DNA from: a virus
Lineage: Duplodnaviria; Heunggongvirae; Uroviricota; Caudoviricetes
Reading direction: 5' to 3' (one strand)
Virus record (IMG/VR): IMGVR_UViG_2778261465_000003
Span: 1 to 13,814 of that record
DNA length: 13,814 bases
Position 1 is the first letter of the stretch. Each line of letters begins with the position of its first letter. The notes under the pieces are model-generated. The model was not told the DNA's origin and ran no database searches. It saw nothing but the letters and a program-made list of their open reading frames with translations. The translations under genes were made by a program, and so were the position numbers. Positions 1 through 13,401 of the stretch are shown one piece after another.

Positions 1-1074
1 TCATTTGTCGATTTCAATTTTGTCCCATTCCCGTCCACGGCTGTCCCTATACCGCGCCGCCATTGAATCTGATTTATGCCCGAGAAGACGTTGAGCAAAC
101 TTATCGCCAATCTGGTTCCGGTATAGCCTCGCTGACAGGCTACGCAGTTCATGGAATGTTGGCGGGTTTCCATCAAATGAGAGGCCAGATGCATTTCTCG
201 CCTTTGTAAAATACTTTGATACTGTTTTCGGGGAAAGCGGATCGTGATGCTTTGATGCGATTATAGTTTCACTGCTGCTGGCCTCCCTGCATTTCTGTAG
301 TGTATCAGCCAATGAGATATTGAGCGCGTCAATCGTTAGCGTTAGCGGAATGGCGAGTTTAGCCCCTGTTTTACTCTGTTTAATGTGAAGATGGTTGTCG
401 TTTATGTCTGACCATTTCATTCTGCACAAATCGCCGACTCTCTGCCCTGTAACGACGGCCAAATCCATCGCCAGCCTTAGCCAGATAGGGAGAGGTTCGG
501 CTGCATGGTAAATCTCGACATACTCATTAGCTGTCAGCCTTGAGCGCCTTACTTCTGACTTTGCTGTACGGGTTGCTGTTACCGGATTCGTTGCCACATG
601 CCCCTCGGCTATTGCTTCACGAAAAACGTCAACAAGGGTTGACCTGATTAATTTTGCGGAAGCTGCTTTACCTTCTGCTACGTAGGTGTTTAGCATTGCT
701 GCCACTTCTTTCGTTGATATGTCAGTGAGCGGTTTGTCCGGCAATTTTCTTCGGATTGCCCTGATTTTGCTGGCGTAGTCGAGTAGAGTTTTCGGCCTGA
801 TCCCCCTTTCGGTGAGGATTGTTTCATATCGGTCAAGCCACACATGAAGAGTGATTGCGTCACCGCCTTTAATTCTGTCTATTAGTGATTTGCGTCCGCT
901 GTCTGAGAGTAATTCAATATTGGCCTGTATTGCTTCAGTGATTGCTATCCTCCTGTCTCGGCCTAAACCAAACTCTTTACCCGTCCTTGGGTCCCTGTAG
1001 CAGTAATATCCATTGTTTCTTATATAAAGGTTAGGGGGTAAATCCCGGCGCTCATGACTTCGCCTTCTTCCCAT
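1..1074 (-). CDS. int: Phage integrase, tyrosine recombinase (lambda Int-like)
   Basis: 357-aa ORF, colinear with lambda Int as recalled: N-terminal arm-binding region MGRRRSHERRDLPPNLYIRNNGYYCYRDPRTGKEF and C-terminal catalytic region (HELRSLSARLY, LLGHKSD, ARYRD). Overlaps upstream xis by 23 nt as in lambda. Confidence 0.95.
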   Translation of the reverse strand: MGRRRSHERRDLPPNLYIRNNGYYCYRDPRTGKEFGLGRDRRIAITEAIQANIELLSDSGRKSLIDRIKGGDAITLHVWLDRYETILTERGIRPKTLLDYASKIRAIRRKLPDKPLTDISTKEVAAMLNTYVAEGKAASAKLIRSTLVDVFREAIAEGHVATNPVTATRTAKSEVRRSRLTANEYVEIYHAAEPLPIWLRLAMDLAVVTGQRVGDLCRMKWSDINDNHLHIKQSKTGAKLAIPLTLTIDALNISLADTLQKCREASSSETIIASKHHDPLSPKTVSKYFTKARNASGLSFDGNPPTFHELRSLSARLYRNQIGDKFAQRLLGHKSDSMAARYRDSRGREWDKIEIDK

Positions 1075-5533: not shown

Positions 5534-5885
5534 TGGCTGAAAGACGCTTTACCAGCTCGTCCATCGCCTGACTCGATGTATCGATGGTTCCGTTCTGAAT
5601 TGGTTCACGCATTTCATCCATGATTTCCAGCACCAGGCGGCGGTGATAGTTATCCGCGACCATTCCGGCATATCCCTTCAGGTTTGCGGCACTCGGGCAG
5701 TTTTTGCTGGTCATCAGGATTGACGTGAAATGCTCCTCTCCGCACGCCTCGGCAACCATCAGCGCGTCGATTAGGTTTCTGTTTCTCGCCTGCTTGCGGA
5801 TAACCTCGAAGGCTTTCCGGTAGAGCGGAATTGAAAACGCTTCCGGCTCCAGCGTTGCCAGAACGTCGCTGGCGGTTGGTGTTAA
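5500..5885 (-). pseudogene. DnaB-like replicative helicase N-terminal domain fragment, inverted relative to the nin/late genes
   Basis: Minus-strand translation ...[73 protein letters not shown]... is colinear with the E. coli DnaB N-terminal domain as recalled (...FYTRPHRHIF...LSKNTPSAANISAYADIVRERAVVREMI...). No ATPase domain is present; similarity is lost at about 5885. Confidence 0.55.
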
Positions 5886-6349
5886 AGGCAGCAGAGAAGA
5901 AACGACGACGAGAGGAGCAGAAACAGAAAGATAAACTTAAGATTCGAAAACTCGCCTTAAAGCCCCGCAGTTACTGGATTAAACAAGCCCAACAAGCCGT
6001 AAACGCCTTCATCAGAGAAAGAGACCGCGACTTACCATGTATCTCGTGCGGAACGCTCACGTCTGCTCAGTGGGATGCCGGGCATTACCGGACAACTGCT
6101 GCGGCGCCTCAACTCCGATTTGATGAACGCAATATTCACAAGCAATGCGTGGTGTGCAACCAGCACAAAAGCGGAAATCTCGTTCCGTATCGCGTCGAAC
6201 TGATTAACCGCATCGGGCAGGAAGCAGTAGACGAAATCGAATCAAACCATAACCGCCATCGCTGGACTGTCGAAGAGTGCAGGGCCATCAAGGCGGAGTA
6301 TCAACAGAAACTTAAAAAACTGCGAAACAGCAGAAGTGAGGCTGCATGA
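5831..6349 (+). CDS. ninG: NinG (Rap)-like recombination protein, N-terminus replaced or truncated
   Basis: From [56 protein letters not shown]... to the end it is colinear with lambda NinG as recalled. The first 18 residues ([21 protein letters not shown] start) are unrelated and lambda's N-terminal Cys-rich region is absent. Confidence 0.8.
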
Positions 6350-7587: not shown

Positions 7588-7662
7588 GGGTCAGTCGTAT
7601 AAAGGTCATTACGGAAGGCTGTTAACCTTCTTATCGTGGTTCGAGTCCACGCTGTCCCGCCA
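7588..7662 (+). tRNA. tRNA-Asn (anticodon GUU)-like, one acceptor-stem mismatch
   Basis: Hand-folded cloverleaf: acceptor GGGTCAG / CTGTCCC (T.T at pair 4-69), D-loop AAAGGTCA, anticodon stem GAAGG / CCTTC, loop CTGTTAA (anticodon GTT), T-arm CGTGG-TTCGAGT-CCACG, discriminator G, encoded CCA. Anticodon and T loops match E. coli tRNA-Asn as recalled. Confidence 0.6.
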
Positions 7663-7667
7663 AATAT

Positions 7668-7743
7668 GCTGGTTTAGCTCCAATGGTAGAGCGGTCGCCT
7701 TGTAAGCGAATGGGTAGCGGTTCAAGTCCGTTAACCAGCACCA
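7668..7743 (+). tRNA. tRNA-Thr (anticodon UGU)-like
   Basis: Hand-folded cloverleaf: perfect 7-bp acceptor GCTGGTT / AACCAGC, D-arm GCTC-CAATGGTA-GAGC, anticodon stem GTCGC / GCGAA (27-43 mismatch), loop CTTGTAA (anticodon TGT), T-arm AGCGG-TTCAAGT-CCGTT, discriminator A, encoded CCA. Confidence 0.7.
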
Positions 7744-7861: not shown

Positions 7862-8077
7862 ATGAAATCAATGGACAAAATCTCAACTGGCATTGCCTAC
7901 GGAACATCCGCTGGTAGTGCGGGATACTGGTTTTTGCAGTGGTTGGATCAGGTCAGTCCATCACAGTGGGCTGCGATTGGGGTGCTTGGAAGCCTTGTGT
8001 TGGGCTTTCTCACCTATCTGACAAATCTGTACTTCAAAATCAGAGAAGACAGAAGAAAGGCTGCGAGAGGTGAATAA
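7862..8077 (+). CDS. S: Class II holin (phage 21 S21-type pinholin) with dual-start motif
   Basis: 71 aa, [71 protein letters not shown], matches phage 21 S21 as recalled. Met1-Lys-Ser-Met4 gives antiholin and holin starts; two transmembrane segments. Confidence 0.95.
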
Positions 8078-8574
8078 TGCCTCCATCATTACGAAAAGCC
8101 GTTGCTGCGGCTATTGGTGGCGGGGCTATTGCTATAGCATCTGTGTTAATCACTGGCCCAAGTGGTAACGATGGTCTGGAAGGCGTCAGCTACATACCAT
8201 ATAAAGATATCGTTGGTGTATGGACTGTATGTTACGGGCATACCGGAAAAGACATTATGCTCGGTAAAACGTATACCAAAGCAGAATGCAAAGCCCTCCT
8301 GAATAAAGACCTTGCCACTGTCGCCAGACAAATTAACCCGTACATCAAAGTCGATATACCGGAAACAACGCGCGGCGCTCTTTACTCGTTCGTTTACAAC
8401 GTTGGTGCTGGAAATTTCAGAACATCGACGCTTCTTCGCAAAATAAACCAGGGCGATATCAAAGGCGCATGTGATCAGCTACGGCGCTGGACATACGCTG
8501 GCGGTAAGCAATGGAAAGGTCTCATGACTCGTCGTGAGATTGAGCGTGAAGTCTGTTTATGGGGGAAGCAATGA
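8077..8574 (+). CDS. R: SAR endolysin (phage 21 R21-like, T4-lysozyme fold)
   Basis: 165 aa. N-terminal signal-anchor-release domain rich in Gly/Ala ([20 protein letters not shown]) followed by a lysozyme domain ([18 protein letters not shown]...); matches phage 21 R as recalled. Start overlaps the holin stop. Confidence 0.95.
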
Positions 8575-8969
8575 AGATCCACTACAAGATAATTATCTTC
8601 GCGTTCGCGTTCGCATTGAGCGTACTGGGCGTCATCGTTTGGTCAGCAAGCCATTATCACGATAAGTATCAGGCGGAACGGCTACGCGCAGATGCTGCCG
8701 AGCAGAACGCCAACGCCGCCGAAGCGATCACCGCCAACGTCATTCGGTCTGTGAACATCATCAACGCCATTGCAGAGGCCAACCAGGATGCAAAGAACCA
8801 GATCACACTGGAGTCACAGGGAGCCCAAGCAGATATCAAAGTGGCTATTGAGAATGATGACTGCGCTCATCGGCCTGTGCCTCCTGCAACTGCTCACCGG
8901 CTGCGGCAATTCGCGGACAGTTTACGTACCGGTATCGGTAGTGCCTCTACCGGCAAACCTGACAGCTGA
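8571..8969 (+). CDS. Rz: i-spanin (Rz-like inner-membrane spanin)
   Basis: N-terminal transmembrane segment ([20 protein letters not shown]) then an Ala/Gln/Glu-rich periplasmic region; directly follows the endolysin; GGGGGAAG Shine-Dalgarno before ATG 8571 (track ORF starts at 8559). Confidence 0.8.
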
Positions 8970-9111
8970 GACGCAACAGCCAGCCATTCCCGAACCGCTG
9001 ACCTATGGGGCCAGTCTGGAGCTGAATGTTAGCCTGCTATCGGCGCTGGGTCAGTGCAACATCGATAAGGCTAGTATCAGGAAGATTGAAGAGTCTCGGA
9101 CCTCTCTGTAG
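8854..9111 (+). CDS. Rz1: o-spanin (Rz1-like outer-membrane lipoprotein), overlapped architecture
   Basis: +1 frame starting inside Rz: [17 protein letters not shown] with lipobox LTGC, then a Pro-rich mature region ([20 protein letters not shown]). Runs 142 nt past the Rz stop. Confidence 0.75.
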   Translation: MMTALIGLCLLQLLTGCGNSRTVYVPVSVVPLPANLTAETQQPAIPEPLTYGASLELNVSLLSALGQCNIDKASIRKIEESRTSL

Positions 9112-9147: not shown

Positions 9148-9177
9148 TTGGTCAATACATCGAACAGATCAGATAAT
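9148..9177 (+). promoter_or_regulatory. Candidate sigma70 promoter for the protease gene
   Basis: TTGGTC, 18-bp spacer, GATAAT in the AT-rich spacer after Rz1, about 55 nt upstream of the protease ATG. Confidence 0.35.
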
Positions 9178-9231
9178 TCTTATGTGATTGATGCTATATT
9201 TATCCCCTATTTAAACATGGGAGTTACGGAT

Positions 9232-10032
9232 ATGTCTGTCAGTCAAGATATTTATAAGTCTACACTTAGAGTTGAAAGTGATACTCCAGAGGGAACCTCG
9301 GTAGGAACTGCTTTCTGGTTTTGCTTTGTTATGGAAGGTGGTGAAGATATTGTTCCACTCTTGGTAACTAATAAGCATGTTGTTAACGGGGCAACAGAAG
9401 TTAGACTACGTCTAAACATTACCGACAGCGCAAATCCTGAGATAAAATTTTATAACCTAACAATTTCAGAGGGGGCAAATGCGTTCATTATGCACCCTGA
9501 TGATAATGTTGATATATGCATATTGCCTATCGCTGGATTGCTGAATGAGATGGAGAAAAGTGGCATTAGCCCAGAACTCTTCTTTTTCACAGATCGTCAG
9601 ATGCGTGGTAACAATTACATTACTCCTGTCGAAGATGTTTACATGACAGGATATCCAAATGGATTATGGGATTCTGTAAACAATAGGCCTGTTACCAGGA
9701 AAGGCATCACAGCATCATCACCTATGGAAAACTGGAAGGGTAAGCCTGAATTCCTCATTGATATGGCTTGTTTCGGTGGTTCTAGCGGTTCTCCCGTTTA
9801 TATAATGAACCAAGGCTCATATGCTACTAATGATGGTATTGCTATGGGGGAGAGATTAATTTTCCTTGGGTTGTTGTATGCAGGGCCAGTAACGAATGTT
9901 AGCGGGAATATTGAAATTATTGACGTACCAACAGTCGCTACACCAGTTGTGCGTTCTGAAATTACAATGAATCTCGGATTTGTTATTAAAGCAGAGAAGC
10001 TAAATGACTTTAAGCCTCTCTTGGGGATTTAA
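9232..10032 (+). CDS. Cytoplasmic trypsin-like serine protease (chymotrypsin fold, Trypsin_2-like), AT-rich accessory gene
   Basis: 266 aa from ATG 9232 (GGGAG Shine-Dalgarno 8 nt upstream; track ORF starts at a TTG at 9148). Catalytic triad in canonical order and context: His in LLVTNKHVV, Asp in DDNVDICILPIAG, Ser in GGSSGSPVY. No signal peptide or transmembrane segment. GC clearly lower than the flanking phage genes. Confidence 0.75.
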   Translation: MSVSQDIYKSTLRVESDTPEGTSVGTAFWFCFVMEGGEDIVPLLVTNKHVVNGATEVRLRLNITDSANPEIKFYNLTISEGANAFIMHPDDNVDICILPIAGLLNEMEKSGISPELFFFTDRQMRGNNYITPVEDVYMTGYPNGLWDSVNNRPVTRKGITASSPMENWKGKPEFLIDMACFGGSSGSPVYIMNQGSYATNDGIAMGERLIFLGLLYAGPVTNVSGNIEIIDVPTVATPVVRSEITMNLGFVIKAEKLNDFKPLLGI

Positions 10033-10037
10033 CACAA

Positions 10038-10059
10038 GCCGCCTCCGGACGGTTTTTTT
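10038..10059 (+). terminator. Possible weak intrinsic terminator after the protease gene
   Basis: Imperfect GC hairpin (CCGCC..GGACGG) followed by seven T, beginning 6 nt after the protease stop. Confidence 0.4.
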
Positions 10060-10071
10060 ATTGCTATTACA

Positions 10072-10097
10072 AAAGCCACTCCATGCCGAGTGGCTTT
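10072..10097. repeat. Perfect 10-bp inverted repeat (stem-loop)
   Basis: AAAGCCACTC-catgcc-GAGTGGCTTT. Could be a minus-strand terminator (short U tract follows on that strand) or a protein or RNA structural site. Confidence 0.5.
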
Positions 10098-10165
10098 GAT
10101 AATGGCTTATACCCTACACGGGATAACTTAACTGATATCCCAACAAGCGGATAAAGAGGTTCTCA

Positions 10166-10291
10166 ATGTCCGACATCTACCAAATCATGTTAACCACCCA
10201 AACAGGCGAAACCTTTACGGGTAAGATGTCACGACGTCAGCGTGAGCTGGTTAATGGCTTTATGCAGCCGGCTACCGAGATGGGCGAGTAG
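10166..10291 (+). CDS. Small hypothetical protein (41 aa)
   Basis: Below track threshold; MSDIYQIMLTTQTGETFTGKMSRRQRELVNGFMQPATEMGE, with AAGAGG Shine-Dalgarno 6 nt upstream of ATG. Confidence 0.35.
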   Translation: MSDIYQIMLTTQTGETFTGKMSRRQRELVNGFMQPATEMGE

Positions 10292-10380
10292 AATAACTCC
10301 ATTAGGAGAATGTGGAACCATTACACTTTGAGCCGTTAACTGATATTGATAAAGGTAAATAATATCGTGGTTAAGGTTTT

Positions 10381-10653
10381 CTAATAGCCAGCCATTTGCA
10401 AAATCACAGTTGCAGCAGCAGCGAAAGCTGCATATGAGTTATATTTAGACTGTAACCGCGCAGTTAAGAAAAATTCGTGAAGATCTACATTTTTTTGGGG
10501 ATCATCAAATGTAATTGCTACAACGGTGCTTCTACCTGTTTTGACTTTGGCTGTTGCTGATTTGATCCATAACCCAGCCGATAAAAAACCAAAGAAAATT
10601 GATAGTGTATGATGGTCAATTAACCAGTTTTTAATTAGTAATAAATCACTCAT
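10381..10653 (-). CDS. Small hydrophobic (putative membrane) protein, about 90 aa, AT-rich
   Basis: Track ORF 10381..10698, start taken at internal ATG 10653 because the track start lies inside terS. One clear hydrophobic segment (LSIFFGFLSAGLWI) and a hydrophobic C-terminus. An open frame this long is unlikely by chance in AT-rich DNA. Convergent with the protease unit. Confidence 0.45.
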   Translation of the reverse strand: MSDLLLIKNWLIDHHTLSIFFGFLSAGLWIKSATAKVKTGRSTVVAITFDDPQKNVDLHEFFLTARLQSKYNSYAAFAAAATVILQMAGY

Positions 10654-10677
10654 TTTCAATCCAATTGAGACTTTGCC

Positions 10678-11229
10678 ATGGCACTCACCGACAAACAAGA
10701 AATGTTCTGTCGCGAGTACCTCATCGATTTAAACGCCACACAAGCGGCTATTCGGGCGGGGTACAGCGCAAAGACAGCCAACCGTACTGCGTCCGAAAAC
10801 ATGTCAAAACCTGACATCAAGTTAAGAATCGCTGAACTGAAAGCGCAACGCAATGATCTTGTTGGTATTAATGCAGAATATGTACTTAATCGCCTTCTTG
10901 AAATCGACCAGATGGATGTGCTTGACATTCTCCTGCAAAACGGTGAGCTAAAACCCATTAAAGACTGGCCTAAGGTATGGCGCACAACGCTATCAGGAAT
11001 GGATGTCGTGGAGATGGTATCCGCAGATAGCGCCGCACTTCTGAAGAAAATCAAATGGCCTGATAAGGTTAAAAATCTTGAGTTGCTTGGGCGTCATGTT
11101 TCTGTTCAGGCGTTTAAAGACAATGTCAAAAATGAAGTGACTGGCGCTGATGGAGGACCAGTCAGAACAGAAATTACCAACTTAACGCCGGAGCAGGCTG
11201 CAGAGGCGTATAGAAAAATGATGGGCTAA
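10678..11229 (+). CDS. Terminase small subunit (Terminase_2-like, N-terminal helix-turn-helix)
   Basis: 183 aa; N-terminal [57 protein letters not shown] is characteristic of phage TerS; immediately followed by the large subunit. Confidence 0.85.
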
Positions 11230-11231
11230 GT

Positions 11232-12194
11232 ATGCCGTTACCATTCCCCTTCGATTTTAAACATCCTGATTACCAGATGGTTTTTGAATGGCGGATGGAA
11301 CGCCTACAGCGCATTCGCCAGAATCCTGAAATATTGCCCGTGTTGAAGCAGTTTTACCGAACCAATCCGGCTCAGTTCATCATCGACTGGGGCATGACAA
11401 CGGACCCGCGTAATATTGATTATGGCCTGCCGGTAACCATTCCGTTTTTACTCTTCCCTAAGCAGGAGGAGTGGATCCACTGGATTATGGAACGCTGGAG
11501 CAATCGGGAGAATGGTATTACCGAAAAATCCCGTGAAATGGGGCTCAGTTGGACCGCGATCGGACTGGCCTGCTCGCTTTGTCTCTTCAACAAAGAAATG
11601 GTTATCGGTTTCGGCTCCCGTAAAGAGGAATACGTCGACAGCACCGGTGACCCGAAAGCATTGTTCTGGAAGGCGCGCAAGTTCGTGGAAACACTACCTG
11701 TAGAGTTTCGCGGTTCGTGGAGCGAGAAGAAGCACGCGCCATATATGCGTGTTGAGTTTCCTGAAACTGGTGCCGTTATCAAAGGCGAGGCTGGCGATAA
11801 TATTGGTCGTGGTGACCGTACCACGCTTTATCTGGTTGATGAGGCTGCATTCCTTCAGCGTCCTCTGCTGATTGATGCGGCGTTGTCACAAACGACGCGT
11901 TGCCGTATTGACCTGAGTTCAGTTAACGGCATGGCGAACCCGTTCGCTCAGAAGCGTCATGGCGGGAAGATACCGGTATTCACATTCCACTGGCGGGATG
12001 ATCCTCGCAAGGATGAAGAGTGGTATCGCAGGGAATGCGAGAAAATCGATAATCCGGTGGTGGTGGCACAGGAACTTGATCTGAACTACAGCGCATCAGC
12101 GGAAGGCGTCCTGATTCCATCCGAATGGGTACAGGCTGCCGTTGATGCGCATATCAAACTGGGTATGGTGCTGTTTCTAATGTTACCGGTGTAA
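11232..12194 (+). CDS. Terminase large subunit, ATPase domain only (C-terminal nuclease domain missing)
   Basis: 320 aa with a Walker-B-like [10 protein letters not shown] and TerL-like N-terminal half, but far shorter than an intact TerL of this type, which is usually well over 400 aa. The ORF ends in a short non-homologous tail where another frame takes over. Confidence 0.8.
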
Positions 12195-12724
12195 CCCGCC
12201 ACAAACTCTATGAAAACGATAATGGTTCGGAGGACGGTAACGGGTTACCGCCACACTCTGTTGCTGTAATTGTGGATGGCGGTGATGTGACGGATATTGC
12301 TCAGGCTATCAGAGGGAATAAAGGCCAGGGAACAGCCACTCACGGTACAACATCCGTTACGGTTCCGGATAAATACGGCAATCCCCATGTAATCAAATTT
12401 TCGCGTTCCAGTGATGTGCCTGTTTATGCCCGGATTAAATTAAAAGTTTTTACGGGTTATACCTCACAGATAGGGCAGCAGATCCAGCAGGCTATTTCCG
12501 ACTATATCAATAGTCTGATGATTGGTGATTCGGTCCTTTTAAGTCGCATTTACTCACCGGCGAATCTTGGCGTGGTGAGTGGCGGGAATGCACGCTATTA
12601 CGATATTCAGGAACTGACGATTGGGAAATCCCCGGGGGCTTTGTCGTCATCAAACATTGATATCAGATACAACGAATCTGCGTCCTGTACCCCGGAAAAT
12701 ATCGTTATAACGGTGGAGTCATGA
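12146..12724 (+). pseudogene. Baseplate-J-like protein, C-terminal fragment (e14 JayE-like), no proper start
   Basis: Frame open from 12146, overlapping the TerL tail; only a GTG at 12272 is available. Tentatively resembles the C-terminal part of baseplate J family proteins; ATGA-coupled to the downstream tail gene. Confidence 0.5.
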
Positions 12725-13401
12725 GCAAATACACCGAACTAATCACGAACTACCACGCCACCAAACCTAAATTTCTTGCACATGTTGATCTGATGACCCG
12801 GCCGCTTATTGATGTTGCGGCTGCCACCAGAGGGCTGATTACTGCATTTGATATTGACTCTGCGGTTGGTGTGCAACTTGACATTCTGGGATTGTGGATC
12901 GGACGTAGCCGTGTTGTCAGCCAGCCTATTTCAGGTGTCTATTTCAGCTGGGATACCGACGGGCTTGGATATGATCAGGGTGTATGGCAGGGGCCATACG
13001 ATCCTGATTCCGGATACATGTACCTCAGCGATGAAACTTATCGTGTCATCCTTAAAGCGAAGATTGCGATTAATAACTGGGACGGACGGAATGATTCGCT
13101 TCCGGCAATTCTTGACGCGGCAACAGCAGGATCCGGACTGCGAATGCAGATAGTCGATAACCAGGACATGACGATATCGGTCTGGGTCTTTCCTGATACT
13201 GATATTTCAGATGTATCGCGTGAGTTAATTGCGGCAATTAAACAGGGGTATCTCACAGTAAAAGCCGCCGGGGTATGGGCGGGTGGCATTGAAACACCTT
13301 CGGTGGAAACCCCATCGGAAGGCTCAAAATTTTTTGGTTTTGATATGGATAACGAATTCATCAGTGGTTTTGATGTAGGAGCATGGGGAGTATTACTCTG
13401 A
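12721..13401 (+). CDS. Phage tail/baseplate protein, DUF2313 (YmfQ / Mu gp48-like)
   Basis: 226 aa; resembles E. coli e14 YmfQ-type tail proteins as recalled; translationally coupled on both sides. Confidence 0.65.

Follow-up and report, generated by a model that had tools for sequence, protein, structure and literature searches.

[quoted passage not shown] A preliminary description of the DNA, made from the letters and an ORF list, had offered two answers: the gene product is a partner of the protease (immunity protein, sensor or membrane effector), or the gene is an independent, bor-like moron. The two readings were examined by comparative sequence analysis of the whole stretch of viral DNA, 13,814 nucleotides long and called the window below. 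The features referred to in the text are collected in Table 1.

Table 1. Coordinates of the features around the small gene (positions in the window).
Feature	Position	Strand	Basis or remark
Trypsin-like serine protease, slot A	9148-10032	plus	Trypsin_2; PADLOC PDC-S45, E 1.1e-100
Terminator-like hairpin	10036-10055	both, weaker on minus	GC-rich with T-run, directly after the protease stop
41-aa ORF, phrog_6581	10166-10291	plus	conserved, convergent with the small gene
Slot B, replaceable cassette	10285-10677		reaches from the 41-aa ORF up to the terS ATG
Small ORF (90 aa)	10381-10653	minus	stop 10381-10383, ATG 10651-10653; ORF listing and direct reading
Spacer between the divergent starts	10654-10677		24 nt; sequence
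terS, small terminase subunit	10678-11229	plus	Terminase_2, E 2.8e-39; PHROGs
terS codons 11-30, low synonymous variation	10708-10767		synonymous codon diversity

The minus-strand ORF of roughly 90 aa that had been described exists, as read from the ORF listing and directly from the sequence. The left end of the extent then given (10381-10677) is correct, but position 10677 closes the spacer, and the ORF reaches no further than 10653; the gap between its ATG and that of terS (10678), put at about 24 nt, is exactly 24 nt. A TTG-extended version of 105 aa, reaching 10698, is unlikely, since PGAP calls the 90-aa form in relatives and diverged orthologues begin at the equivalent position. The DNA is AT-rich, as had been stated: the GC content of the small ORF is 0.363 (GC3 0.29), against 0.46 in terS and 0.51 in both terL and the lysis genes. 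Comparison with orthologues of the same length (89-90 aa) at 53-68 % identity gave dN/dS values of 0.08-0.25, with dS saturated. A lack of conservation in related prophages had been named as an outcome that would speak against the gene; the ORF is instead conserved, and belongs to the PHROGs family phrog_14357. This pattern indicates that the small ORF is a real gene, under purifying selection, although its annotation in relatives is hypothetical only.

The 90-aa protein matches the phrog_14357 HMM from end to end (E 2.9e-62; residues 1-90 on profile positions 1-90 of 90). The family is without annotation in PHROGs, where its proteins are ∼85-95 aa long. An exhaustive search returned 14 representatives and a profile search 143 clusters, all of 83-98 aa, from accessory regions of prophages and integrative elements in Proteobacteria; the longer members carry N-terminal extensions, and there are no domain fusions. 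Residues A26, W29, S32, Q68, N72, A75, A76 and Q86 are invariant, and two conserved helix motifs, LSAxLWxxSA and QxKxNxxAAxxAA, are rich in small residues. A single hydrophobic segment had been reported at first, and transmembrane and topology prediction had been suggested as a check. Hydrophobic helices are indeed predicted, but there are two of them (∼residues 16-33 and 73-90), both Ala-rich and just 15-18 residues long, and the AlphaFold2 model is a hairpin of two helices (H2-34 and H58-88, pLDDT 80). The loop joining the two helices comprises 40-47 residues. Charge counts (K/R versus D/E) are 12 versus 34 for the N-terminal tail and 174 versus 144 for the loop. According to these predictions of insertion and topology, the product is a two-helix membrane protein.

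Searches for a known relative were negative. No Pfam, NCBIfam or PADLOC model scored above threshold with the 90-aa protein or with 31 family members, and PADLOC-DB v2, which covers known anti-phage defence, gave 0 matches for the 90-aa protein. A match to Cas_Csa4 (E 0.01, under the cutoff) and one to KwaA in one of 14 family members (E 0.021; PADLOC-DB v2) were regarded as noise. An identity with SLATT_4, suggested by one member (P0013; E 0.007, 16.2 bits against a cutoff of 55, C-terminal helix only), was rejected because the match was confined to one of the 31 members scanned; Pfam SLATT gave no match in the family at E ≤1. Foldseek comparison of the AlphaFold2 model with BFVD and the PDB returned nothing at E ≤0.001, a helical hairpin being an uninformative fold for structure comparison, and a profile search against PDB sequences returned 0 matches. 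The small gene was not found by tblastn in INPHARED (sequenced phage isolates), and the 90-aa protein has no sequence or fold similarity to known exclusion or defence proteins. It is not a holin by position or by family: the gene is encoded by the other strand and lies apart from the holin-lysozyme-Rz/Rz1 block (7862-9111), and no holin family of Pfam or PHROG matches the protein.

The immediate surroundings of the gene are more informative. Each of the two genes has a Shine-Dalgarno-like sequence within the 24-nt spacer, GGA (minus strand) for the small gene and GAG (plus strand) for terS, in a back-to-back arrangement. In relatives with 51 % identity or more, the small gene always has terS as its divergent neighbour; the two start codons are 24-26 nt apart in loci whose small proteins range from 100 % to 51 % identity. 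The cassette beside terS is replaceable. The related locus L003 matches positions 10039-10284 and 10678-11300 of the window and not 10285-10677, where it encodes a soluble 72-aa protein instead of the 90-aa protein. A minus-strand ORF adjoins terS in 63 of the 75 related viral contigs listed, its start 5-80 nt (mostly 12-30 nt) from the terS ATG, and these ORFs sort into at least 19 unrelated families, including that of the small gene itself. Spacers are cassette-specific, each of 17 cargo types having a different one, and homology among the related contigs resumes or breaks exactly at the terS ATG. Many of the cargos are soluble and unrelated. Annotation of the other cargos yielded only DUF2158 and a weak match to DUF2441; PADLOC gave no matches among them, and on this evidence the label of a defence hot-spot is not justified. 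The small gene itself occupies it in 11 of ∼2,538 E. coli genomes with a matching terS region. On its other side, every locus with 83 % identity or more has the 41-aa ORF together with the small gene; this ORF is found next to another slot-B cargo as well, and orphan copies of the small gene lack it.

Because of the high proportion of contigs with a slot ORF, the 19 unrelated families and the break of homology at the terS ATG, the small gene is, on this comparative evidence, classed as moron-type cargo in a hot-spot slot that ends at the terS start codon. Of the marks of a moron in the Hendrix/Casjens sense (PMC2629481), it shows a base composition unlike that of the surrounding phage genes and is absent from or replaced in close syntenic phages; for two further hallmarks, a promoter of its own (typically active in the lysogen) and a factor-independent terminator, no motif was recognised. 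At the accessory and defence hot-spots of temperate phages (P2/P4; the P22-like "ant moron"), unrelated genes interchange within sharp boundaries (PMC9122126; PMC2629481). Slot B resembles hot-spots of the P2/P4 type in its fixed position, its sharp boundaries and its diversity (at least 19 families in the 75 contigs listed), and differs from known defence hot-spots in that its cargos match no PADLOC model. No prior description of a minus-strand slot abutting the terS ATG at ∼20-27 nt was found in the literature searched.

The promoter of the small gene had been placed inside the 5′ end of terS or overlapping it. An overlap is forced by the spacer, which is merely 24 nt long, but a promoter motif was not found: a built-in and two looser scans detected no sigma-70-like promoter ahead of the gene on the minus strand of the window, and there was no positionally conserved site across 12 orthologous upstream regions. 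On the comparative side, the shared geometry of the 19 cargos, the terS stubs described below and a stretch of suppressed variation within terS point indirectly to an internal promoter. In 56 unique sequences, synonymous diversity was 0.08 in terS codons 11-20 and 0.03 in codons 21-30, against 0.15-0.45 elsewhere; this stretch sits 55-115 nt upstream of the small-gene start. We regard it as the candidate position of a leftward promoter, or another control element, common to the cargos; a site related to pac, an element of the terS mRNA, or a recombination anchor with homogenisation could also account for it. A structured 5′ UTR found no support: RNAalifold predicted a hairpin in the upstream block without covariation (covariation term +0.2), and Rfam detected two tRNAs and nothing else in the window. 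The window has no intrinsic terminator downstream of the small-gene stop, nor do the orthologues share one; the nearest terminator-like element is the hairpin behind the protease gene, whose T-run on the minus strand is poor.

Copies of the gene that have lost a functional terS neighbour bear on both the promoter and the function. Seven such orphan loci with an intact small ORF were found, in Enterobacter hormaechei, on a Pseudomonas silvicola plasmid, in Pseudescherichia and Kalamiella, and on viral contigs. Dead terS sequence of 92-520 nt is retained in five orphan loci with upstream DNA available, and the stretch of codons 11-30 is present in all orphan copies. An 82-codon terS stub is kept beside the small gene in L016/L017, with the working terS elsewhere. 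The stubs and the suppressed codons are both compatible with a control element within the 5′ part of terS. Their retention could be passive, since in the orphan group the upstream block evolves no slower than the small ORF; a shared 4-nt insertion indicates that the orphans descend from one pseudogenised terS, so the truncation endpoints are few. The window is itself a decayed prophage, in which the virion genes are lost and the small gene is intact; its terL is cut short and joined to baseplate J, and none of 5,426 E. coli genomes shows this junction. As intact, selected copies occur in remnants without terS or virion genes, the small gene probably has no role in virion morphogenesis or lysis.

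The reading that had seemed most attractive at this locus, a two-gene system in which the small protein serves the PDC-S45-like protease as immunity protein, sensor or membrane effector, for example as a cleavage-activated pore, is now very improbable. Both genes are AT-rich, and they lie 349 nt apart (protease stop at 10032) in the window and in six of the nine distinct contexts of the identical protein; in addition, very distant family members in Ralstonia (L019/L020) and Herbaspirillum (L022) have a Trypsin_2 gene within 2-4 kb, that of L022 being PDC-S45-like (E 5.4e-22). The remaining three of the nine contexts lack the protease, however, and the pairing is confined to this one 100 %-identical allele: none of the orthologues at 51-98 % identity has the protease, nor does any of the 11 complete E. 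coli genomes with the small gene. Conversely, 15 of the 18 viral contigs with protease relatives are without the small gene (three have it); protease relatives follow Rz in its absence. A trypsin-like protease of any kind was present in two of 19 distant family contexts. Two other genes stand between the small gene and the protease in both L019 and L022, and these co-occurrences did not recur in 17 further contexts, so that the partnership, tested both ways, was rejected. The genes also occupy separate cassettes on opposite strands, with the terminator-like hairpin and the 41-aa ORF between them; the small gene, which had been said to end opposite the protease unit, converges on the 41-aa plus-strand ORF instead. 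The protease cassette (slot A) lies directly after Rz/Rz1; relatives lose similarity from ∼8575 to 10039-10115 and have Rha, KilA-N or nothing in place of the protease. Gene callers start the protease at the internal ATG 9184, giving 282 aa, and PADLOC lists PDC-S45 as a single-gene candidate. Protease alleles are found mostly in Salmonella, small-protein alleles mostly in E. coli. The co-occurrence with adjacency across diverged homologues that marks a two-gene system is thus missing, and the analysis returned the outcome which the preliminary description had itself named as fatal to the partnership, a small ORF widespread without the protease. The distributions indicate that the small gene and the protease are inherited independently.

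Three further explanations concern the small gene alone. It could encode a toxic membrane effector, like a type I toxin or a holin, that depolarises or permeabilises the membrane in abortive infection, under mutual regulation of the terS/late RNA and the small-gene RNA, and persists by addiction. A two-helix hairpin with polar residues S25, S32, Q68, N72 and Q86 and oligomerisation-type AAxxAA motifs would suit such a protein, as would the weak SLATT_4 (pore-forming) match of one member (E 0.007); the 5′ UTR of the small gene is necessarily antisense to the terS start region, and the orphans keep intact copies with ∼100 nt upstream. We nevertheless consider this unlikely: type I toxins are usually shorter than 60 aa, the SLATT_4 match is found in one of 31 members at 16 bits against 55 with no support from Pfam SLATT, PADLOC effectors do not match, and neither an antisense sRNA nor an Rfam family nor a conserved RNA structure (covariation +0.2) was found. 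Moreover, as many soluble, unrelated cargos share the slot, the antisense geometry belongs to the slot, not to the small gene. A role in terS or late control, in which the protein modulates the timing of packaging or lysis, or leftward transcription dampens leaky late or terminase expression, is quite improbable. The near-constant divergent junction of 24-26 nt, held from 100 % down to 51 % identity, the synonymous constraint in the terS 5′ end and the position between the lysis and packaging modules speak for it; against it, the orphans keep an intact, selected ORF after destruction of terS, the window has no virion genes at all, and more distant family members are nowhere near terminase genes. 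A specific partnership of the protein with terS is disfavoured by the 19 unrelated proteins that the slot holds, and a role of transcription by itself would not result in dN/dS values of 0.1-0.2. There is, finally, a negligible chance that the ORF is a frame arisen by accident in AT-rich spacer DNA and encodes no protein, as the unrecognisable promoter and terminator, the lack of a Pfam or NCBIfam family and the purely hypothetical annotation might suggest. When the 409-nt region was shuffled 2000 times, an ATG-ORF of at least 90 codons arose just 7 times. Good Shine-Dalgarno sequences precede the diverged orthologues, and more than 140 clusters across Proteobacteria share invariant residues; together with the low dN/dS and the constant length, this pattern of conservation already refutes the spurious-ORF reading.

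The comparison with bor is one of organisation. In lambda, bor is a small gene that phage growth does not require; it occupies the interval from Rz to the cos/terminase end and is read in the direction opposite to the late operon. Its product is a lipoprotein of the outer membrane, made with a signal peptide and a lipobox. The small gene shares the interval from lysis to packaging, the strand and the small size, and the bor-like, independent moron that had been proposed stands in this respect (replaceable, AT-rich, antisense to the late operon), but not as a homologue: the N-terminus of the 90-aa protein, MSDLLLIKNWLIDHH (MSDLLLIKNW...), tested against the Bor/Iss family, has neither lipobox nor signal peptide, the protein has two hydrophobic helices, and none of 14 family members has a Pfam match of any kind above threshold.

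With respect to function, the closest parallels are small membrane proteins that exclude other phages. [quoted passage not shown] SieA of P22, an inner-membrane protein of 162-164 aa with three TM segments, is encoded in the late-operon "ant moron", acts alone and blocks DNA entry (PMC10883804). The 90-aa protein resembles SieA, gp15 and Imm as a phage-encoded small protein, predicted to lie in the membrane, in a moron-type setting, an analogy of working principle only; it differs from SieA in its smaller size and predicted two-helix hairpin and shares no sequence or fold similarity with the three. Tab of the Pseudomonas phage JBD26 is the 83-residue product of a moron between terS and terL that is expressed from the prophage and protects the lysogen by inhibition of virion assembly (PMC10884400); it had no sequence similarity to known proteins at its discovery (PMC10884400). 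Here the likeness is that of a small moron product adjoining terminase genes, whereas tab is described as lying within the late operon, not divergent from it, and Tab is unrelated in sequence and not reported to be a membrane protein. SLATT domains have two transmembrane helices with conserved polar residues, as has the 90-aa family, in which the helices are, however, parted by the long loop; nucleotide-signalling genes of the kind associated with SLATT were found in none of the family contexts examined.

Taken together, the small gene is very probably an independent, moron-type cargo gene that encodes a membrane protein. It would be expressed in the lysogen, transcribed leftwards from a control region in the conserved first ∼100 nt of terS and be shut off in lytic growth by head-on, Q-antiterminated late transcription. 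The 90-aa protein would insert into the inner membrane, probably with both termini outside and the basic loop inside, and may act through its conserved helices, either associating with itself or attaching to a membrane protein of the host. The benefit to the lysogen would most likely be superinfection exclusion or a membrane-based phage defence, for example a block of DNA entry; intact copies persist in decayed prophages and as orphans with a terS stub. By analogy with the exclusion proteins, superinfection exclusion or defence as the specific activity of the 90-aa protein is tentative, whereas the explanation as a whole (independent moron cargo, membrane protein, exclusion or defence) seems on balance the probable one. 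A further reading, in which the first ∼100 nt of terS serve as an outward expression dock where cassettes with their own RBS are swapped at the ATG and the 90-aa protein represents a new exclusion or defence family, is possible but rather doubtful.

The small gene is therefore an ordinary kind of element, a moron, and a new member of an unannotated family, and the story of a protease with a membrane partner can be abandoned for this locus. A family of ∼90-aa membrane proteins with more than 140 clusters is now delimited, with its motifs and contexts, and is a cheap candidate for exclusion or defence screening. The terS-abutting slot offers a compact site for mining the "dark matter" of prophages, and the suppressed variation in terS codons 11-30 suggests an overlapping signal in an essential packaging gene. 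If the dock reading were true, the 90-aa protein would found a widespread exclusion or defence family that hosts keep after the prophage has decayed.

The minus-strand ORF beside terS was found to be a real gene under selection. Three features given in the preliminary description were confirmed: the ORF is 90 aa long, its start codon is separated from that of terS by exactly 24 nt, and it lies in AT-rich DNA (GC 36.3 %, GC3 0.29, versus 46 % for terS and 51 % each for terL and the lysis genes). An alternative TTG start would extend the ORF to 105 aa, up to 10698; NCBI annotates near-identical copies as the 90-aa form, and the start codon of diverged orthologues falls at the corresponding place, preceded by good Shine-Dalgarno sequences. 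When the region was shuffled 2000 times, an ATG-initiated ORF of this length appeared in only 7 cases. Comparison with same-length orthologues at 53–68 % identity gave dN/dS values of 0.08–0.25, with dS saturated.

Features of the window around the 90-aa gene and of the prophage that carries it
Feature	Position	Strand	Remarks
Integrase	1–1074		leads the gene order
NinG, phosphatase, Q			between integrase and tRNA genes
Two tRNA genes	7588–7659 and 7668–7740		between Q antiterminator gene and holin gene (Rfam)
Holin-lysozyme-Rz/Rz1 block	7862–9111		terS and terL downstream
Protease (Trypsin_2)	9148–10032	plus	gene callers use 9184
Terminator-like hairpin	10036–10055		protease cassette
41-aa ORF (phrog_6581)	10166–10291	plus	converges on 90-aa gene
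Slot B	10285–10677
90-aa gene	stop 10381–10383, ATG 10651–10653	minus
terS	start 10678	plus	Terminase_2 (E 2.8e-39)
terS codons 11–30	10708–10767		low synonymous diversity
terL/baseplate J junction	about 12158–12272
Baseplate J and gpI-like genes	12272–13401		right end of window

The window is a lambdoid prophage, and a defective one. Apart from the two tRNA genes, the Rfam scan of the window gave no match. terL diverges from its relatives past about codon 312, leaving an ORF of 320 aa versus 540 aa, and the truncated gene is fused to the 3′ portion of a baseplate J/gp47 gene, after which comes a P2 gpI-like gene. This junction was found in none of the complete E. coli genomes. In strain FDAARGOS_1287 the 90-aa gene and the matching baseplate gene lie within one prophage, 19 kb apart; the portal-to-baseplate genes have therefore been lost from the window's prophage. 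A 68 %-identical orthologue in the related locus L013 (597–2775) lies 425 nt from baseplate J/gpI-like genes homologous to those of the window and adjoins a DUF2441 gene; among the alternative slot-B cargos, that of locus L083 is likewise DUF2441-like.

The 90-aa protein is a full-length match to phrog_14357 (E 2.9e-62), a family of unknown function, and belongs to no family in Pfam, NCBIfam or PADLOC. Identity as a SLATT protein was rejected (one of 31 members matches, scoring 16 bits where the cutoff is 55). Among 1.8 billion representatives, an exhaustive HMMER search gave 14 relatives of 83–92 aa, and a profile search gave 143 clusters, nearly all of 83–98 aa and every one annotated as "hypothetical", from Escherichia, Klebsiella, Pectobacterium, Pseudomonas, Ralstonia, Herbaspirillum and Bradyrhizobium. 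No relative was found in sequenced phage isolates. Longer members carry N-terminal extensions only, with no fused domains. Two hydrophobic segments were found (about residues 16–33 and 73–90), not the single one described previously, and the AlphaFold2 model is a two-helix hairpin (mean pLDDT 80) without a fold match in BFVD or the PDB. Residues A26, W29, S32, Q68, N72, A75, A76 and Q86 are invariant in the family alignments; helix 1 carries the motif LSAxLWxxSA, and QxKxNxxAAxxAA runs into helix 2. The interhelix loop varies in sequence and is constant in length (40–47 residues). Charge counts over 31 members (N-tail, 12 K/R versus 34 D/E; loop, 174 versus 144) weakly favour, by the positive-inside rule, a topology with both termini out and the loop in.

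Breakpoint mapping placed the protease and the 90-aa gene in separate replaceable blocks. Slot A extends from Rz/Rz1 to about 10040–10115 and holds the protease in the window, and Rha, KilA-N or nothing elsewhere. The protease cassette is AT-rich, directly follows Rz/Rz1 and has a terminator-like hairpin at its end. Slot B lies before terS, and in all loci from 100 % to 51 % identity the 90-aa gene is found 24–26 nt from a Terminase_2 terS or a terS remnant. In locus L003 similarity to the window ends at 10284 and returns exactly at 10678; the slot contains an unrelated minus-strand gene for a soluble 72-aa protein, which starts 22 nt from terS. The conserved phrog_6581 ORF accompanies the 90-aa gene in every locus with 83 % identity or more, is also present with the different cargo of L003, and has forms of 44–70 aa elsewhere.

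The slot was surveyed in 80 viral contigs (L066–L145) carrying terS relatives (identity 69 % or higher), of which 75 were analysable, by using minus-strand ORFs of at least 40 aa starting 5–80 nt from the terS ATG. Such an ORF was present in 63 of the 75 contigs, its start mostly 12–30 nt from the ATG. The ORFs fall into 19 unrelated families of 49–192 aa, including a DUF2158 protein (11 loci), a 111–116-aa protein (11 loci), the 90-aa membrane family (8 loci), a 182-aa protein (7 loci) and a 143-aa protein (5 loci). Membrane-protein cargo recurs in the slot, since three loci (L068 and L069 among them) carry an 81-aa membrane protein (MRKLIVFVSF...; maximum KD15 hydropathy 2.5) unrelated to the 90-aa protein. 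Across 17 cargo types the DNA before the terS ATG is wholly different, each spacer having its own back-to-back Shine-Dalgarno sequences for cargo and terS; homology is lost precisely at the ATG, whereas terS DNA is almost identical over its first 75 nt. The DNA just upstream of this Terminase_2 terS is a general hot-spot and, because slot B is replaced by unrelated families at the same boundary, the 90-aa gene is one interchangeable cargo within it.

As only 24 nt lie between the start codons, any cargo promoter must lie in terS coding DNA common to all 19 cargos. A sigma-70-like site for the 90-aa gene was not found in the window by built-in or looser scans, nor did the looser scans give a positionally conserved promoter in 12 orthologous upstream regions; no intrinsic terminator was found downstream of the gene. 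Synonymous codon diversity, calculated over 56 unique terS sequences, was 0.08 in codons 11–20 and 0.03 in codons 21–30, versus 0.21 in codons 1–10 and 0.15–0.45 elsewhere. Codons 11–30 lie 55–115 nt upstream of the cargo ATG, and their low diversity implies a putative overlapping nucleotide-level signal, candidates being a cargo promoter, a pac-related site and a recombination anchor; the constraint could instead reflect an mRNA feature of terS.

Remnants of terS were found beside several copies of the gene. Klebsiella aerogenes-type prophages (L016/L017) keep an 82-codon N-terminal stub of the window-type terS (5728–5976) next to the 90-aa gene; the terS that functions in them is another gene (330 aa, different N-terminus), located 1.3 kb away and preceded by TonB_C-like and DUF2560 genes. 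A 57 %-identity subgroup of orphan copies lies in otherwise unrelated surroundings, with the ORF intact in all, in Enterobacter hormaechei, a 953-kb Pseudomonas silvicola plasmid, a Pseudescherichia MAG, Kalamiella and viral contigs L042–L044 (around 8001 in L023, L024, L025, L026 and L044; at position 1 in L042 and L043). The five orphans with upstream DNA retain 92, 130, 148 or about 520 nt of dead terS, frameshifted with a common 4-nt insertion and with the start codon mutated in L023 and L024. The low synonymous diversity, the stub and the remnants are consistent with a control element at the 5′ end of terS. Caveats are that the orphans descend from one pseudogenised ancestor, that their upstream block evolves no slower than the ORF, and that no covariation was found for a predicted hairpin in it.

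Distant family members were found in prophages or integrative elements, within accessory regions and near integrases, DNA methylases, RecT/YqaJ, an OLD-like ATPase or a primase/SSB/ProQ block, with no recurring neighbour and no fixed orientation. The member in Ralstonia pseudosolanacearum (L019/L020, 1039–4463) lies in an integrase-proximal island that also encodes a Trypsin_2 protein similar to the RT-Protease_XI protease domain (PADLOC) and an AAA_15/AAA_21 ATPase of the OLD/Gabija-like kind; a giant two-partner-secretion (TPS) protein follows. Intact, selected copies in decayed elements argue that the 90-aa gene is useful to the host or hard to lose, and that its function is independent of packaging.

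A partnership with the protease, suggested previously and amounting to a two-gene protease-membrane system, is not supported and is very improbable. The protease matches PDC-S45 (E 1.1e-100; PADLOC, "S" denoting a single-gene candidate), which is treated as a hypothetical candidate in the one paper found to mention it. The ORF had been described as ending opposite the protease; it converges on the phrog_6581 ORF, and the protease, with its own hairpin, ends 349 nt away. Pairing is seen in six of the nine distinct contexts of the identical 90-aa protein, and a Trypsin_2 gene, in one case PDC-S45-like, lies 2–4 kb from two very distant members (Ralstonia, Herbaspirillum). Against this, the protease is missing from the other three contexts, from the neighbourhood of all orthologues of 51–98 % identity and from all 11 E. 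coli genomes (among 5,426 complete ones) that carry the 90-aa gene, in which its position holds Rha, another small gene or nothing; the sole protease relative in the 5,426 (67 % identity) is in a genome without the gene. The remaining 17 of 19 distant contexts have no trypsin-like protease of any kind. In the reverse direction, 18 viral contigs have protease relatives (35–100 % identity, usually directly after Rz); only 3 of them contain a family member, and those three have 100 %-identical proteases. By allele counts the protease is mostly from Salmonella enterica, the 90-aa protein mostly from E. coli. Most simply, genes of both types would be common cargo in accessory regions of similar kinds.

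The 90-aa gene is probably an independent membrane-protein cargo of the moron type. [quoted passage not shown] The earlier proposal of a bor-like moron stands for its organisation, which resembles that of lambda bor, and for its independence from the protease; unlike Bor, the protein has neither lipobox nor family match. A spurious ORF is practically out of the question in view of the shuffles, the dN/dS values and the invariant residues of a family with 143 clusters. Involvement in the control of terS or late genes is improbable, as the copies in decayed elements point to a function that does not depend on packaging, and a toxin-like or abortive pore, antisense-coupled to terS RNA, is unlikely. 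For the moron-type cargo, superinfection exclusion or defence is the most plausible activity, though a tentative one. Precedents are HK97 gp15, P22 SieA, which is the inner-membrane product of a late-operon moron (PMC10883804), and JBD26 Tab, whose 83-aa defence moron lies next to the terminase genes (PMC10884400). The gene would be expressed in the prophage from a leftward promoter within the terS 5′ end and occluded by head-on late transcription during lytic growth. The protein would insert in the inner membrane, where its conserved small-residue helix faces may mediate oligomerisation or bind a host membrane protein, so that the lysogen would be protected.

As originally framed, the 90-aa gene is ordinary, and the more exciting protease-membrane reading is unsupported. 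The by-products are a delimited dark-matter membrane family, a slot for 19 cargo families docked at the terS ATG and a probable overlapping constraint inside terS.
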